Assembly: GCA_038745065.1 (NCBI GenBank)
Contig: JBCDLT010000007.1
Location: 11,320 to 75,319, forward strand
Source: Pseudomonadota bacterium
Lineage (GTDB): Bacteria > Pseudomonadota > Alphaproteobacteria > Rhizobiales > JANQQB01
DNA length: 64,000 bases
Direction: 5' to 3'
Shown here: piece by piece, positions 291 to 5,826 of the stretch
Numbering within the stretch: the first letter of the stretch is position 1
Layout: every line of letters starts with the position of its first letter
Program-made: the position numbers and the translations under genes
The notes under the pieces: model-generated
Database searches by the model: none
Told to the model about the DNA's origin: nothing
Seen by the model: the letters and a program-made list of their open reading frames with translations, nothing else

Positions 291-542
291 ATATGATCGT
301 TCAGTAATGCGCCACCCGCAAATGCGGGACGGCCTCAACGGATGGTTTCCGGGCTGCTTGCACGATCACGGCGGATGACGTCCTGATCGATAAAAGCAGC
401 CCGCTTGAGTGTGGTGATTGCGGGGTCAGTCACCGGACCACCATCCTGGCAAAGCAATAGTCCCCCGACCCGATTTCACCTGAAGATCCGGAATCGATTC
501 CGACTATAACGCTCTCTAAGTCTGGAAATGGAGCGTGGGTCG

Positions 543-1356
543 ATGAACCGATTGGATGGTAAAATCGCCGTGGTGACCGGCGGCACGCAAGGTCTCGGCG
601 CCGCGATTGCACGCCGGTTTGCCGAAGCCGGTATCGCCGGGATCGTGACCTGCGGACGCAACACGGAAAAAGGCGACGCTATTGCCGCGCGGATCGAACG
701 CGATCACGGCGTTCCGGTGCGATTTGTGACGGCGGATCTCGCCGATGTAGACGCATGTCGTGTCGTGATCACCGCGGCGGATAAGGCCTTCGGGCGTCTC
801 GATACGCTCGTCAATGCGGCAGGGCTGACGGATCGCGGCGATCTGTTGAACACCACACCCGAGCTCTTCGACCGGCTGATTGCCGTCAACGTGCGCGCCG
901 TTTTTCCTGATGCAGGAGGCTGTCCGCATGATGATCCGGGAGGGCACTGAAGGAACGATCGTCAACGTCGGCTCGACTTCGTCCCGGGCAGGACAACCCT
1001 TCATCGCCCCCTATTGCACGTCCAAGGGCGCGCTTTCGACGCTGACACGAAACAGCGGTTTCGCCTTGATGCGCAACAGAATTCGCGTCAACCAACTGGA
1101 CATCGGGTGGATGAATTCCGACAACGAGCGGTCCGTGCAGGCCGCCGAATCCGGCGATGCGGAATTCATCGAAAAAGTTGCCAGGACAATGCCGTTCGGC
1201 CGCCTGCTGGAACCCGATGAAGTGGCAAAGGCCGTCGCCTACCTCGCCTCCGACGACAGCGGCATGATGACCGGTTCCGTGATTCAGTTCGATCAGTCGA
1301 TCTGGGGTGGCTATGACGGCCAGGCCCCTACCCCCGAAAACCCGATGACCTTGTAA
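543..1356 (+). pseudogene. Short-chain dehydrogenase/reductase (SDR), split by a frameshift near 897-898
   Basis: The N-terminal half (frame of 528) carries the Rossmann motif KIAVVTGGTQGLG and NAAG. The C-terminal half (frame of 880) carries the catalytic S...YCTSK and the PFGR..PDEVA tail. The two frames overlap at gtgcgcgccg (891-900). Reading ...NVRA then PFFLMQ... requires 2 missing nt in a CG run. Confidence 0.75.
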
Positions 1357-1446
1357 AGAAGTCCTGCCATCGTTTCCGCCGTTGCCGAGTCCGCTTCAAG
1401 CCATATCGCAAGCACTTATCCTCAACCGCCCGTTTTATGCCACGCC

Positions 1447-1519
1447 AGGAAGTTGGCCATAACCGCCCATAAAGCCGGCGCATTGGAATACATCGGAAAA
1501 TGACCGGATTGCGGGATCG
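1447..1519. repeat. Left copy of a 73-bp direct repeat (displaced 3' end of the alpha/beta-hydrolase gene)
   Basis: 72/73 nt are identical to 5021-5093; the single mismatch is at 1462 versus 5036. On the minus strand it keeps the hydrolase frame (IPQSGHFPMYSNAPALWAVMANFL) and continues to its own stop at 1422-1424 (AWHKTGG*). Confidence 0.9.
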
Positions 1520-1748
1520 AGACGACAACGCCAAGGCGGGGGCTTTTGGGACACCGTCAAGAAACGCGATACTGCAATCACAGTCTTTCAGCGGGCATCT
1601 TGGCTGCGTCTCCCATTGCTTTGGACAGAAACGCCAAACCTCTGCATAGAGGGACGGCGCAACCGTATTGTGACTTGTTGCTCAACTTTTATTAAACGCT
1701 TGCACTGCTAGAATATTGACATGTTCTAATCTTAGGTCTGCACCCGTC

Positions 1749-1958
1749 ATGCAAGAAACCGGCAACCATCAAAACATCACTTCCGAAAACCTGTTGGTCG
1801 AATTGAGGGGCATACGGTTAGCGCTCGAGGCGTCCGTCGACATGCAGAAAGATCTGACGCGAATGATCGAGCGCACGAATAAGTGGGCCAGAGTTTTCAA
1901 CTTCGTTGTGTTTTTCATAATAGGTCTCGCGGCCGCTTACCTGATTGTGCCTGCATGA
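1749..1958 (+). CDS. Hypothetical small protein with a single C-terminal TM helix
   Basis: ORF 1716-1958, with the internal ATG at 1749 (MQETGNHQ...) preferred. It has a charged helical N-terminal part followed by VFNFVVFFIIGLAAAYLIV. A TAGAAT -10-like box lies about 40 nt upstream. I recognise no homology. Confidence 0.35.
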   Translation: MQETGNHQNITSENLLVELRGIRLALEASVDMQKDLTRMIERTNKWARVFNFVVFFIIGLAAAYLIVPA

Positions 1959-2166
1959 CAATCCGTCGGTTTGAATTCGAATGCTGTTTTCTGGGCCGCT
2001 GTCCGAAACCCATCGCCACAAACGAGGTTGCACGGGTTCAAAGCCTCGGCTTGCCGCCATTGGAATTCAAAAGCGGATTTTGCGCAGCGCCTTGGCGACA
2101 AAGTAGGCGCCGGGTTCCCTACGGACGGTCAGCCAACGCAACAGGTTTCCGATAAAGGGCGAATCG

Positions 2167-2499
2167 ATGGGTGCAGGTTTTATCGCTGGTGCGCTTGAAA
2201 GAATTATCTTTGATCCGCTCGCGATAGCGATGCTGATCTGTCTTTACTTTATATTCTTTTCGATCATCAAATATGCGATGGCTCGCTTCACTCTAGCAGT
2301 AATTACAACTTCACTAGTCAATTATTTTATCGAATCGACGAACGACTCATTCCATTCAATACTTAATACAAGGCTCTTAATAAAACTGACTATTTACTCC
2401 ATAATGCTAGCGATTTTTATTTTCATCTACAAATTAATCACATTGACTTACTCGCTAATCGCCAAATTAACGAGGAAGGCGTTGGCATCCCGGCGATAG
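2167..2499 (+). CDS. Hypothetical multi-pass membrane protein (most AT-rich gene in the window)
   Basis: This 110-aa ORF has 3 hydrophobic segments rich in I/L/F/Y/K/N, reflecting AT-rich codons. It sits inside the islet. No family is recognised. Confidence 0.45.
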   Translation: MGAGFIAGALERIIFDPLAIAMLICLYFIFFSIIKYAMARFTLAVITTSLVNYFIESTNDSFHSILNTRLLIKLTIYSIMLAIFIFIYKLITLTYSLIAKLTRKALASRR

Positions 2500-2714
2500 C
2501 AACGTCGGATGTTGGACCGGTGCTCCTGTAGCCCAATCATCCAGAGTTGCAATCACACTCTCACATGATCGGCTATGCCGGCGCAGCCTGCGGTCTTTGC
2601 TCGTTCTACACATCGAGCGGTCGGGGAGGACACCCCTTTGTCGTCAACCGATAGCATACACGACCCGGCGCCGCCCGAACCAGCCTTGCCACATTACCGC
2701 CGACCTTCAGCCGT

Positions 2715-3224
2715 TCATCGGAACAGGGCGTTCCGGATCGCCGTCATCAACGCAGCAGCCACTGCCATGACGAGCAGGGCCAGGGCGCAGGCGATCAACG
2801 CGTAGCCGAGTTTCCCCAAACTGGGCTTCAGATCCATGACGCGGTCTGAGGCAAGAAATCTTGACGCCAACAGCAATGCGGACAGGGGCGAGAAAATCAA
2901 AGCTTCCGTCACTCGCCATTTACCGCCCGTCTGTTCGAGAGCTTTTCCGGTCAGACCGCGTAAACACAGGTTGCGAAATATGATGATTGGCAAGAGAAGC
3001 AACCAGGCGATGATGATCCAAAGTATAATGTGAGCAAGTACATAGGCAATCAACTGCACCGTCGTCTCGCCATCGTAGCCAATACTTCTGATGAAATCAG
3101 TTAGCATATGGCCTAGCGCTAAGACGACGCCAAATGCAGACGTCACAAGGAAAGCCTGTGTCTTCGACCAGTGGATGAATCGGTTAGCACCCGATGCCTC
3201 ATCGTGCTGGACGTTATTCGTCAC
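2715..3224 (-). CDS. Hypothetical 4-TM membrane protein, paralogue of 3354-3893
   Basis: 169 aa. It shares blocks with its neighbour: FIHWSKTQAFLVT / FVHWSKRQAFFVT, LLLPIIIFRNLCLRGLTGKAL / FLLPIVVLRNLSLYGLSGQSL, GGKWRVTEALIFSP / GSKWKIKEALVFSP, and the C-terminal IRNALFR / LRNMLYR. Confidence 0.6.
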   Translation of the reverse strand: MTNNVQHDEASGANRFIHWSKTQAFLVTSAFGVVLALGHMLTDFIRSIGYDGETTVQLIAYVLAHIILWIIIAWLLLLPIIIFRNLCLRGLTGKALEQTGGKWRVTEALIFSPLSALLLASRFLASDRVMDLKPSLGKLGYALIACALALLVMAVAAALMTAIRNALFR

Positions 3225-3353
3225 GACGATCCTTATCCCTATGCATCTTGATTATGAATAACCCTGGGACATTGCGTGAGGGTCTACCGGTGGAAAATTC
3301 CGAGCAAACCACCCCAATCGGCAATCTTCGGACAGAGGCCCGACTCGACCTGT

Positions 3354-3893
3354 TCATCGGTACAGCATGTTCCGAAGCCACACCATCAAAGCGACAGCAA
3401 TCCCGATTACCAATAGGGATAAGACGCAAACGGTCAAAGCGTAAACAAGTTTACCGAAATTCGAATTCAGACCCGTTACGCTGTCTGATGCAACAACGCA
3501 GGAAGCGAATAGAAGGCTGGCTACAGGTGAAAAAACCAGAGCTTCTTTGATTTTCCATTTGCTCCCGGTCTTTGCCAGTGATTGCCCGCTCAGACCATAC
3601 AAAGACAGGTTTCGCAGAACAACGATAGGCAAGAGAAACAAACAAGCGATGACGGCCCAAACGAGTGTTTCGCTCGCGACATGAAGGATCACTTCCGATG
3701 TCTTGTCTGCTTGATGGCCGCCATTTACGATATCGGTCACGAGGGAATATCCAAGCCCTCCGACCGAGCCGGACCCCATCGTCACAAAAAATGCCTGTCT
3801 CTTCGACCAATGAACGAATTGAGTCACGCCCAAATCCCCATCATGCCGCGCAACGTCGGTCACGTCGAAGACTGCGGCCATTTCATCGTACAT
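3354..3893 (-). CDS. Hypothetical 4-TM membrane protein, paralogue of 2715-3224
   Basis: 179 aa with the same topology and conserved blocks as 2715-3224. It lies immediately downstream of the secreted-protein gene on the same strand. Confidence 0.6.
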   Translation of the reverse strand: MYDEMAAVFDVTDVARHDGDLGVTQFVHWSKRQAFFVTMGSGSVGGLGYSLVTDIVNGGHQADKTSEVILHVASETLVWAVIACLFLLPIVVLRNLSLYGLSGQSLAKTGSKWKIKEALVFSPVASLLFASCVVASDSVTGLNSNFGKLVYALTVCVLSLLVIGIAVALMVWLRNMLYR

Positions 3894-3976
3894 CCAGAGT
3901 AGGCGCGGACTTTCGCGCCACCTCCCCTGTCGTGTGTGTTGGAAAGGCTTTCAATCTGCAGATCATGAGTCACGGT

Positions 3977-4771
3977 TCAAGTACCGTCCGGCATGCTACG
4001 CAAGATTGCCAGATCATCAAATTCTCGAGATCCGGGTTGCATTAAGTCGGACTGTTTCGGGCTGGCGCAAAATCGTTTGCCGTAGGAATGAAAGAGTTCA
4101 ATGAATTCATCGACCTTGTCGTCAGAGACAAACATCGAATACTGCCTCCCGGTACTGTTACGCGGCCCCTGAGTGCTGAACCCAGCGCACCAGCGGTAAA
4201 CATCGCCCACACGCGTGTAGATCTTGTCAGTCAACTCGGCTTCAAATCTCTCTCGGAGCACCCTCATTCTTTTGTCGCCGCCCTCAGGAATACTGGCAAA
4301 CTCCTGGTCTACTATTTTCTGGGCGTCATTCTCAACCTTTTGGATTCGCTCCAATAAGCCCGGTTTGAAGTCGAAACGAATGATGGATTTTTGCGGAGTG
4401 AGTTCACTCGGACGCGTGGATTTGTGAATGCCAGGATCCGCGGTTTTCAAAAGACCGACATCAATCCGGCGGTCAACCTGCCAATAGTCAACGGCCGGAC
4501 AGTTGTTTCGATTTCTATCAAGTCTCCTTACAAGAATGCAGTCTTCAAAAAAGGCGGTTTCTCGCGATCGGACGATCCCGGCTCTTACGTTTTCCAACGT
4601 CAGCACGCCGACGATGCGGTGCTCGAGATCGGCACGCGATAGACGATCAGCCGGGGACGGAAACAGATCAAAAAAAGCGGTATCTGTTTGGCGTGATTCC
4701 ACGGCTATTGCGTTGGAAACCAACGCGGAGTGAGCAAACCAGAAAAGTACGAAGGCGAACAATCGCATCAT
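3977..4771 (-). CDS. Hypothetical secreted protein (Sec signal peptide, 4 Cys)
   Basis: 264 aa. The N-terminus MMRLFAFVLFWFAHSALVSNA/IAVE looks like a signal peptide with an SNA cleavage site. The mature part is hydrophilic, and no family is recognised. It is the first gene of a minus-strand trio in the islet. Confidence 0.6.
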   Translation of the reverse strand: MMRLFAFVLFWFAHSALVSNAIAVESRQTDTAFFDLFPSPADRLSRADLEHRIVGVLTLENVRAGIVRSRETAFFEDCILVRRLDRNRNNCPAVDYWQVDRRIDVGLLKTADPGIHKSTRPSELTPQKSIIRFDFKPGLLERIQKVENDAQKIVDQEFASIPEGGDKRMRVLRERFEAELTDKIYTRVGDVYRWCAGFSTQGPRNSTGRQYSMFVSDDKVDEFIELFHSYGKRFCASPKQSDLMQPGSREFDDLAILRSMPDGT

Positions 4772-4995
4772 AATAGAGGCCTAAACTCAGATAATTCAGA
4801 TTACGAGAATTCCAATAACTTAACGAGATATTACCTCGTTTTAAAGCCAGTCTTTTTGGCCCAAAGTGATGATACCTGTTTCCCCGAACGACGATTGGCA
4901 ATGCGTCCGGCCCCGCGGCGGCACTATGAGCTCTTATACGTTTTCCCGGGAAGGCAGGCTAGTCCTTCGTCAGGTTGCGTCAAGATCGGAAACCC

Positions 4996-5826
4996 TCACG
5001 CCCTCGCCTCCCGCCGGGACAGGAAGTTGGCCATAGCCGCCCATAAAGCCGGCGCATTGGAATACATCGGAAAATGACCGGATTGCGGGATCGGAATCAC
5101 ATCGACACCGATCGACCGAAGACGATCCAGATAGGACAGATGCTGGTTCTGCTCGCCGTGGATGAACACCCGCGGCATGGGCAGGCGGGCCATGATGTCC
5201 AGAAGCGGTTCGTTGTCCGACAGAGCGACCATTGAGGTGAAGATCGGCCGGAAGGATGTCGCCCTGACCTTCCAGGGCAACGCCGACGTATAGAGCGCCG
5301 ATGAAAATTCGGGCCGCGCCCGGACACGTTCAATGAAGCCGGCCATGAAGGCATCGGGCGTTGCGGCCGGATGGTCGATGATCTGTCGCGACAGGAAACA
5401 ATCTTCCGGCGCCAGATTGCCTTCGATGTCGATGAAGCTCAGGACACGGTCCGGATGTGCATCGGCCAGCATCAGCGCCGTCAATCCGCCCATGGAATGG
5501 CCCGACAGGTGAAACCGGTCGAGCCCAAGCGCATCGCAGGCGGCGATCGCCACGGCGACGAGGAAGGGGATCGACAATGCCTCCGGGTCATCGACCGACG
5601 ACGCGCCGCAATCCGGCGCATCCCAGAAGAACAGGGCCCGGTCCGCAAAGTCAGGATGCAGGGCCAGATCCGCATAATCCTCCTTGGTCGACCCGAAGCC
5701 ATGCAGGCAGACCAGCGGCGGGCATGTTCCGGGCCGCGTGAGGCAGGCCAACCGGACGGACCGGTCCTGGACAAGAAGGTTGAGCATTTCCGTATTCATC
5801 GCACAGAGAAAACAGTGATGATTCAT
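4996..5826 (-). CDS. Alpha/beta-fold hydrolase
   Basis: It has the nucleophile elbow GHSMGG, HGFG near the N-terminus, and a C-terminal SGHFP histidine region. Length is 276 aa, though the start could be the internal Met at MNTEML. Confidence 0.85.
   Translation of the reverse strand: MNHHCFLCAMNTEMLNLLVQDRSVRLACLTRPGTCPPLVCLHGFGSTKEDYADLALHPDFADRALFFWDAPDCGASSVDDPEALSIPFLVAVAIAACDALGLDRFHLSGHSMGGLTALMLADAHPDRVLSFIDIEGNLAPEDCFLSRQIIDHPAATPDAFMAGFIERVRARPEFSSALYTSALPWKVRATSFRPIFTSMVALSDNEPLLDIMARLPMPRVFIHGEQNQHLSYLDRLRSIGVDVIPIPQSGHFPMYSNAPALWAAMANFLSRREARA
5021..5093. repeat. Right copy of the 73-bp direct repeat (inside the intact hydrolase gene)
   Basis: See 1447-1519. It encodes IPQSGHFPMYSNAPALWAAMANFL of the 4996-5826 gene. 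Confidence 0.9.

Follow-up and report, generated by a model that had tools for sequence, protein, structure and literature searches.

The window, a 64,000-nt stretch of a bacterial MAG (G000), contains a low-GC islet with three minus-strand genes, which we refer to as sec, memA, and memB, and two small putative ORFs (Table 1). A sequence-only reading had described the three genes as an orphan module on horizontally acquired DNA, consisting of a secreted protein and two tandem paralogous membrane proteins, and had proposed a toxin/immunity or other envelope-acting function. The gene coordinates and product sizes given there were exactly right, and an envelope location is supported for all three products. 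Foreign origin is also borne out by composition: the genes have a GC content of 0.50–0.53 compared with 0.615 for the window, and the GC3 of the trio is 0.55–0.64 compared with 0.68–0.79 in neighbouring genes. The sister species referred to throughout is G001, labelled Rhodobiaceae.

Table 1. Coordinates of the islet, its repeats, and its genes within the window
Feature	Position	Strand	Description
distal direct-repeat core, 74 nt	1446..1519		99% identical to proximal core; extended repeat 1420–1533
islet	1520..5019		~3.5 kb of low-GC DNA between the repeat cores; cargo sec, memA, memB, orf110, orf80
orf80	1716..1958	+	small putative ORF in the distal islet part; a single TM segment at the C-terminus; only in the present genome
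orf110	2167..2499	+	AT-rich, hydrophobic putative ORF in the distal islet part; only in the present genome
memB	2715..3224	-	169-aa memA paralogue (46% identity); topology as memA
memA	3354..3893	-	179-aa inner-membrane protein; 4 TM, N-in/C-in; cytoplasmic FVHWSK motif; basic loop 2
sec	3977..4771	-	264-aa exported protein; Sec signal peptide; mature part ~240 aa, highly charged, four conserved Cys
signal peptide of sec, residues 1–23	4703..4771	-	predicted signal-peptidase I site A-I-A|V
alpha/beta-hydrolase gene	4996..5826	-	islet apparently integrated at its 3' end
proximal direct-repeat core, 74 nt	5020..5093		within the alpha/beta-hydrolase 3' end; extended repeat 4994–5107

The repeats that bound the islet suggest how it arrived. 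The distal repeat keeps an in-frame alternative C-terminus for the hydrolase (...ANFLAWHKTGG*), with its stop at the matching position, and we infer that the hydrolase gene received the islet at its 3' end, beside an XrtT exosortase cassette. It is the repeats that carry this model, since no integrase, recombinase, or other mobility gene was found among the islet ORFs and no empty site was found: the one other family genome available for comparison, that of the sister species, has the islet's proximal part without the distal repeat. Phage and conjugation genes are absent from the islet, its DNA had no blastn match among plasmids and phages, and no tRNA or Rfam family was detected at the islet or contig boundaries. 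With small integrative islets whose insertion site is a gene's 3' end, the locus shares the 74-nt, 99% identical repeat, the in-frame replacement C-terminus, the atypical GC and GC3, and an ORFan cargo, but it differs from them in having no mobility gene and no empty site in a relative.

All three genes are under purifying selection. Compared with the sister species, dN/dS was 0.26 for sec, 0.23 for memA, and 0.32 for memB, which indicates that the three ORFs are real coding genes. The ribosome-binding sites of sec and memA are weak, the locus shows neither a convincing sigma-70 promoter nor a convincing intrinsic terminator, and the adjacent SDR gene looks frameshifted. These observations, together with the missing recombinase, are in keeping with the ORFs being decaying, non-functional leftovers with no current role. 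We regard such decay as highly improbable, because the present genome and its sister species both keep all three frames open at dS 0.4–1.4 and dN/dS 0.23–0.32, and because the four membrane proteins and the six sec proteins have invariant motifs.

As the sequence-only reading had anticipated, profile searches matched no well-characterised family. Pfam, NCBIfam, PADLOC, and PHROGs gave no curated match for sec, memA, memB, orf110, or orf80, and profile searches of PDB sequences returned only noise (E ~0.5–1). The sole match of memB to Pfam (hmmscan, E<=1) was a sub-threshold one to GPDPase_memb. The label of orphan nonetheless holds only for the membrane pair, as sec belongs to a small, sparse family. 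Both the sec family and the membrane family are new to databases.

The proposed paralogy of memA and memB is clear from a gapless alignment over 169 aa (46% identity, E 1e-33). All four sequence blocks that had been quoted as shared, F(V/I)HWSK.QAF.VT, LLPI...RNL.L.GL.G..L, G.KW...EAL.FSP, and (L/I)RN.L(Y/F)R, are present, and they are also kept in both sister-species orthologues. The 4-TM topology is supported by four hydrophobic segments in the hydropathy profile and by four long helices in a low-confidence AF2 model. Charge distribution and conservation together point to an N-in/C-in orientation. The conserved surfaces, made up of the HWSK motif near the N-terminus and of basic loop 2 leading into TM3, would then be cytoplasmic, and the loops on the periplasmic side are short and vary in sequence. 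A Foldseek search of the low-confidence memA model (pLDDT 51.6) against the PDB gave only generic helix bundles, none of them below E 0.1.

The membrane family is extremely narrow. A profile search of 1.84e9 representative proteins and scans of raw contigs placed it only in the present genome and the sister species, amounting to four proteins in two species among ~15 billion predicted proteins. Genome, metagenome, and viral contig scans gave no further match, and neither did a tblastn search of plasmids; viral contigs and JGI metagenome contigs contained neither this family nor that of sec. We also considered whether the pair is a diverged copy of a neighbour and rejected this, as hhalign probabilities against XrtT, DoxX, and orf110 were <=0.4%.

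The sec protein has the n/h/c signal sequence that had been predicted at its N-terminus. The cleavage region had been placed around SNA/IA; the region stands, but cleavage is likelier after A-I-A (Ala23) than after SNA, because an AxA motif occupies one alignment column across all six homologues. The four cysteines that had been noted are at positions 78, 91, 195, and 235. Three of them (C78, C195, and C235) are invariant in 6/6 family members and C91 in 5/6, the Salipiger protein having a nearby Cys instead. The cysteines probably form two disulfides, in a protein that would fold in the periplasm. The C-terminus is hydrophilic and unconserved, and sec contains no hydrophobic hairpin. An AF2 model of sec was of low confidence (pLDDT 42.4), and Foldseek of this model against the PDB found nothing below E 0.1. 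The AF2 runs for sec and memA predate the more diverse sec alignment; with models this poor (pLDDT 42 and 52), the fold searches are uninformative and we assign no fold.

The sec family is sparse and alphaproteobacterial, with six known members, and has links to mobile elements. One member adjoins a TraA-type relaxase (MobA/VirD2-plus-helicase) and one is on a Salipiger plasmid. The latter (WP_157374368.1, plasmid NZ_CP014597.1 of Salipiger sp. CCB-MM3) is an uncharacterised protein that aligns with 74% of sec at 27% identity (E 2e-11). It resembles sec in signal peptide, Cys framework, and length class, but does not share the conserved IPEGGDxRMRVL block. The gene has unrelated neighbours: upstream, a 560-aa orphan; downstream, a SHOCT protein. 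No relative of the membrane pair adjoins the sec homologues at 70%, 42%, and 27% identity (L003, L056, and the Salipiger plasmid, respectively), and the L003 homologue has no membrane-protein neighbour of any kind, although L003 is a 1.8-kb Logan contig in which misassembly is possible. A further contig, L057, stops 227 nt past its sec gene and is not counted among the three members clearly lacking the pair.

Divergence between the present genome and its sister species changes abruptly within the trio. Nucleotide identity is 82–90% in sec and the flanks and drops at the sec/memA boundary to 57–76% in the membrane pair. Likewise, dS is 0.95–1.36 for the membrane genes compared with 0.41–0.46 for sec and the flanks, and dN/dS is 0.2–0.5 across every region compared. 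The slowly evolving partner is thus sec, which is conserved to the same degree as the flanking genes. At synonymous and non-synonymous sites alike, the membrane pair is far more diverged than the flanks, and so behaves as a replaceable cassette. Weaker codon bias in the membrane genes could account for part of their raised dS, yet sec, whose GC3 is just as low, has a normal dS. These comparisons indicate that sec and the membrane pair have different evolutionary histories inside one locus.

The claim of a three-gene module, whether toxin/immunity or other, is not supported by these results. Among the loci compared, the trio is co-conserved only in the single sister species, sec homologues occur without the pair, and the two histories differ. 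We therefore lean, with slightly better than even confidence, towards reading the trio as two independent orphan units that lie side by side as islet or mobile-element cargo.

The alternative that had been proposed makes sec a secreted toxin of bacteriocin type, or an effector, and memA and memB its two immunity proteins. The gene order fits, as the exported protein is encoded on foreign DNA ahead of two duplicated, co-oriented genes for small polytopic membrane proteins, and the membrane genes evolve fast. The 4-TM, ~175-aa, N-in/C-in format also resembles that of A-type pore-forming-colicin immunity proteins (Cai/Cbi type; Colicin_im), which are ~170–180 aa long with four TM segments, have both ends in the cytoplasm, and are found on mobile DNA. 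The likeness to memA and memB is one of size, segment number, cytoplasmic ends, and mobile DNA; there is no sequence similarity to colicin immunity families in Pfam (E<=1) and no adjacent pore-forming toxin gene. Unlike in the colicin systems, the exported protein encoded upstream lacks a hydrophobic hairpin and is found elsewhere without the pair, which is missing beside homologues as close as 70% identity as well as those at 42% and 27%. Homologous toxins are occasionally accompanied by non-homologous immunity genes, so this absence is no strict exclusion of a cognate pairing here. Yet sec evolves slowly, like the flanks, and searches of Pfam, NCBIfam, and PDB sequences, with the single sequence and with profiles, found no toxin domain in it. 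A Sec signal alone is insufficient for crossing the outer membrane, and the islet contains no T1SS, T5SS, T6SS, or lysis gene. Finally, in the membrane proteins it is the cytoplasmic side that holds the conserved residues, whereas sec would be in the periplasm. Taken with the differing histories, this makes a cognate toxin/immunity system quite unlikely.

The membrane pair could instead be what is left of a decayed prophage or ICE, with a role in phage defence, abortive infection, or superinfection exclusion, and sec would be an unrelated passenger. A repeat-bounded islet without a recombinase would suit such an origin, as would a cargo made up of envelope proteins, a pair that is duplicated, fast-diverging, and narrowly distributed, and a sec family linked to mobile elements. 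Against it, PADLOC returned only noise (E 0.5–0.9), PHROGs gave no match, phage, viral-contig, and plasmid collections contained no match, and the islet is devoid of phage and conjugation genes. We consider this origin unlikely.

The neighbouring exosortase cassette offers another possible context. XrtT (NCBIfam NF033770; 625–631 bits in the sister species and the present genome) lies directly downstream of the trio and belongs to a four-gene cassette of XrtT, a VIT-vWA PEP-CTERM cargo, an OmpR-type regulator, and a histidine kinase. The VIT-vWA protein bears the PEP-CTERM signal ...PEPEALFGLIAVLLLVLARFRK..., and sec, with or without the membrane pair, might aid its processing or anchoring as a lineage-specific XrtT accessory. 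In all three close relatives (3/3), sec is upstream of XrtT. In L003, 105 nt separate it from the conserved leader element of XrtT, and the gap between sec and XrtT equals the width of the membrane pair in the sister species, with a further ~3.1 kb in the present genome. The shared ancestry of the three close relatives explains this adjacency. Outside them, none of 15 XrtT loci of other genera has a relative of the trio (hmmsearch/phmmer --max), on which ground we reject the trio as a conserved XrtT accessory. Genes upstream of XrtT vary between genera, and the distant sec homologues (L056 and Salipiger) have no XrtT nearby. The trio is a physical neighbour of the cassette, but in other genera it is outside the conserved cassette; it differs from XrtT in composition and carries no PEP-CTERM signal or, in sec, PEP-CTERM tail, and XrtT has its own conserved leader element. 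A lineage-specific accessory role is thus very unlikely, and a literature search on XrtT found nothing.

Returning to two independent units, the following scheme would accommodate the data. The sec protein would be exported by the Sec pathway, cut after Ala23, and folded in the periplasm with two disulfides. Its family may spread on plasmids and mobilisable elements, and sec would work without the membrane pair. The memA/memB pair, restricted to the genus, would be a tandem duplication of 4-TM inner-membrane proteins that probably hetero-oligomerise, and would form a cassette that may be swapped within an otherwise conserved locus. Our best guess for the pair is a protective, exclusion- or immunity-like function against something other than sec. 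A more specific joint reading, which we hold to be doubtful, is that memA and memB represent a new inner-membrane immunity or exclusion family, duplicated and swap-prone, that guards against an external membrane-targeting agent, and that the sec family is, independently of them, a new kind of periplasmic factor with disulfide bonds, carried among marine and soil Alphaproteobacteria by plasmids and mobilisable elements. If that were true, two new envelope-acting accessory families would lie within one islet.

The locus leaves the current understanding of exosortase systems and bacteriocins unchanged. If the composite reading of the trio is true, gene order alone would be a weak predictor of toxin/immunity systems, and a handful of homologues was enough here to separate the two units. 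The sharp divergence of the membrane pair within a conserved locus resembles that of loci under conflict, which makes the pair a reasonable, if low-priority, target for work on protection or exclusion.

The sequence-only reading placed three open reading frames on the minus strand, an exported-protein gene (sec) followed by two tandem paralogous membrane-protein genes (memA and memB), and each lies precisely where that reading put it. The window (G000:C7:11320-75319) belongs to a 6.6-Mb metagenome-assembled genome (MAG; G000) of 145 contigs and 93.5% completeness, which we compared with that of a sister species (G001), the sole other member of its family in the genome collection. Relative to the G001 orthologues, sec, memA and memB have dN/dS ratios of 0.26, 0.23 and 0.32, respectively, and we therefore interpret all three as real genes under purifying selection. 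The protein features described from sequence also held. The sec product has an N-terminal signal with n, h and c regions and four cysteines (78, 91, 195 and 235), while memA and memB encode diverged paralogues (46% identity in a gapless alignment, E 1e-33), each with four hydrophobic segments in hydropathy analysis. The blocks quoted for the paralogues, F[VI]HWSK.QAF, LLP...RNL.L, G.KW...EAL.FSP and RN.L[YF], were found and remained invariant once the two G001 orthologues joined the alignment.

The sequence-only reading had recognised no family, and profile searches of curated libraries were empty, with zero matches for any of the three proteins in Pfam, NCBIfam, PADLOC or PHROGs and only noise against PDB sequences. 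Alignments of few sequences gave AlphaFold2 models of poor quality, with pLDDT at 51.6 (memA) and 42.4 (sec), and Foldseek searches with them returned nothing better than E 0.1; we withhold conclusions on fold. Both the sec family and the membrane-pair family are new to the databases.

The genes lie in an islet of foreign composition. GC content falls from ~0.60 to ~0.50 over roughly positions 1500–5000, with islet genes at 0.50–0.53 (window, 0.615) and at GC3 values of 0.55–0.64 (neighbouring genes, 0.68–0.79). The islet is bounded by a direct repeat with a 74-nt core that is 99% identical between copies. The proximal copy forms the 3' terminus of an alpha/beta-hydrolase gene (...ANFLSRREARA, then stop), and the distal copy keeps the hydrolase frame and stop position with a different tail (...ANFLAWHKTGG, then stop). 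This is the footprint expected of an element that integrates at a gene's 3' end and supplies a substitute end. No recombinase was found among the islet genes, which comprise sec, memA, memB and two small, hydrophobic plus-strand frames, orf110 and orf80. The product of orf110 weakly resembles MCR/EptA-type phosphoethanolamine transferases in their N-terminal transmembrane region, far below the threshold (E 1e-4; 21 bits, cut-off 1250), and this frame may represent part of a gene or an artefact of composition.

Coordinates of features at the locus and in related sequences (L010, contig region just left of the window; L001, G001 locus; L003 and L057, metagenomic contigs with sec homologues)
Feature	Location	Strand	Remarks
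sec	window 3977-4771	minus	264 aa
memA	window 3354-3893	minus	179 aa
memB	window 2715-3224	minus	169 aa
memA-memB spacer, G000	window 3225-3353		129 nt
memA-memB spacer, G001	L001:11425-11811		~387 nt
orf110	window 2167-2499	plus	most AT-rich stretch, GC ~0.45, GC3 0.46
Direct repeat	window 1420-1533 and 4994-5107		core 1446-1519 and 5020-5093
Short-chain dehydrogenase gene	window 528-1356	plus	two overlapping frames, 528-950 and 880-1356
XrtT and VIT-vWA region	L010:7282-10910 (G000:C7)		tail of VIT-vWA protein ...PEPEALFGLIAVLLLVLARFRK...
Leader element	L010:10934-10966	minus	AAATCTCCTGAAAATCTGG..., two AAATCT half-sites 11 bp apart
Leader element	L001:12473-12505		as above
Leader element	L003:1650-1686		as above
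Leader element core	L030:3338-3356; L042:7747-7765		
Orphan frame	L010:5849-6592	minus	
Orphan frame	L010:3305-4063	plus	
Relaxase, 280-aa protein and sec homologue	L057:3-3794		

Gene order in G001 is hydrolase, sec, memA, memB, 194 nt, exosortase T (XrtT) and a VIT-vWA gene. In G000, XrtT (NF033770, 631 bits) and the adjoining VIT-vWA protein with a PEP-CTERM-like tail lie just left of the window edge, with XrtT about 3.1 kb from memB. The intervening stretch contains orf110, orf80, the distal repeat, a frameshifted short-chain dehydrogenase gene and DoxX, and apart from the repeat it has no counterpart in G001. The apparent frameshift marks either a pseudogene or a MAG assembly error.

Divergence between the two genomes was uneven across the locus. 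Nucleotide identity was 82%–90% over the AsnC regulator gene, the hydrolase gene and sec, compared with 57%–76% over memA and memB, the change falling at the sec/memA boundary, and dS was 0.95–1.36 in the membrane genes compared with 0.41–0.46 in sec and the flanks. The memA-memB spacer also differs in length, by an indel of ~258 nt within this hyper-divergent block. Since dN/dS was between 0.2 and 0.5 in every sub-region, the excess divergence is not simply positive selection; memA and memB look like an older or replaced allele, in effect a cassette whose recombination is independent of the flanking genes. Weaker codon bias may contribute to the high dS, but in sec an equally low GC3 goes with a normal dS.

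The two units also differed in distribution. Homologues of sec were found by word-based search in G001 (81% identity) and on L003 (70%), and a profile search added P0005 (42%, contig L056) and P0006 (41%, contig L057). A 316-kb Salipiger plasmid encodes a 27%-identical homologue (tblastn, E 2e-11). All six family members share the signal peptide, the cysteine framework and an AxA site at one alignment column, and an IPEGGDxRMRVL block is invariant in the five closer ones. The family is very sparse, with no member in a class-wide sample of 400 other genomes. For the membrane pair, HMMER with a four-sequence profile against 1.84 billion representative proteins returned the window's own protein only, back-translated patterns over genome, metagenome and viral contigs found G001 only, and tblastn against plasmids gave no match.

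Co-conservation of the three genes as a module was not borne out, as sec homologues on L003, L056 and the Salipiger plasmid occur without the membrane pair. On L003, 105 nt separate the sec stop from the XrtT leader element, AAATCTCCGGAAAATCTGGTCATCACCTGAGAAG, and the sequence preceding this element is unrelated to the sec-memA spacer, leaving no space for membrane genes. The gene after sec on L056 encodes an unrelated single-TM coiled-coil protein (hhalign probability 0.2%), with no membrane-pair relatives on the 11.9-kb contig, and the plasmid homologue is flanked by a 560-aa orphan and a SHOCT protein. L057 is a mobile-element context. There, a TraA-like relaxase that combines a MobA/VirD2 nuclease with an AAA_30/RecD-type helicase and is truncated by the contig end precedes an orphan Cys-rich exported protein of 280 aa and, after it, the sec homologue; this contig stops 227 nt past sec. 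From these contexts, sec is a sparse, mobile-element-linked family that does not need the membrane pair.

Proximity to XrtT does not appear to define a larger unit either. A sample of 401 genomes from the order yielded XrtT in 17. Across 15 loci from other genera, it forms a conserved unit with VIT-vWA cargo, an OmpR-type regulator and a histidine kinase. Genes upstream of XrtT at these loci vary by genus and include no relatives of the three genes. Unlike at those loci, the regulator and kinase are not adjacent in G000, where a series of orphan frames follows the VIT-vWA gene. Two orphan frames beyond the cassette have weak, sub-threshold matches, one to an AHH nuclease toxin domain (E 0.003) and the other to a C48 peptidase (E 0.005), and the region may be another variable one. 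In G000 and G001 the conserved leader element is located 30–60 nt ahead of the XrtT start. It is present as a single copy in the entire G000 genome, and three other genomes of the order carry its core form upstream of XrtT; it may be a binding box for the OmpR-type regulator of the cassette. Shared ancestry best accounts for the sec-XrtT adjacency, which is seen in three close relatives.

Charge distribution in the four membrane proteins (memA, memB and the G001 orthologues) fits the positive-inside rule and so predicts an N-in/C-in topology. The TM2-TM3 loop carries +5 to +9 in all four and the C-terminal tail +1 to +2, with the remaining two loops short (10–12 residues) and acidic or neutral. 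Invariant residues concentrate on the predicted cytoplasmic side, in the HWSK motif before TM1 and in loop 2 running into TM3 (18 of 43 positions). Variability is highest in TM1, TM2 and the periplasmic loops; in the two loops, 1 of 10 and 2 of 12 positions are invariant.

These patterns bear on the earlier suggestion that the layout of an exported protein beside duplicated membrane proteins represents a toxin with its immunity proteins. We consider such a cognate pairing improbable because sec is found without the membrane pair, is the slower-evolving partner, and has neither a toxin domain nor an export partner, and because the conserved side of the membrane proteins would face the cytoplasm. 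Instead, the supposed module is more likely two independent orphan units juxtaposed in what looks like an integrative islet that has decayed. Our best guess for the membrane pair by itself is an exclusion- or immunity-like role, which would act against some external agent.
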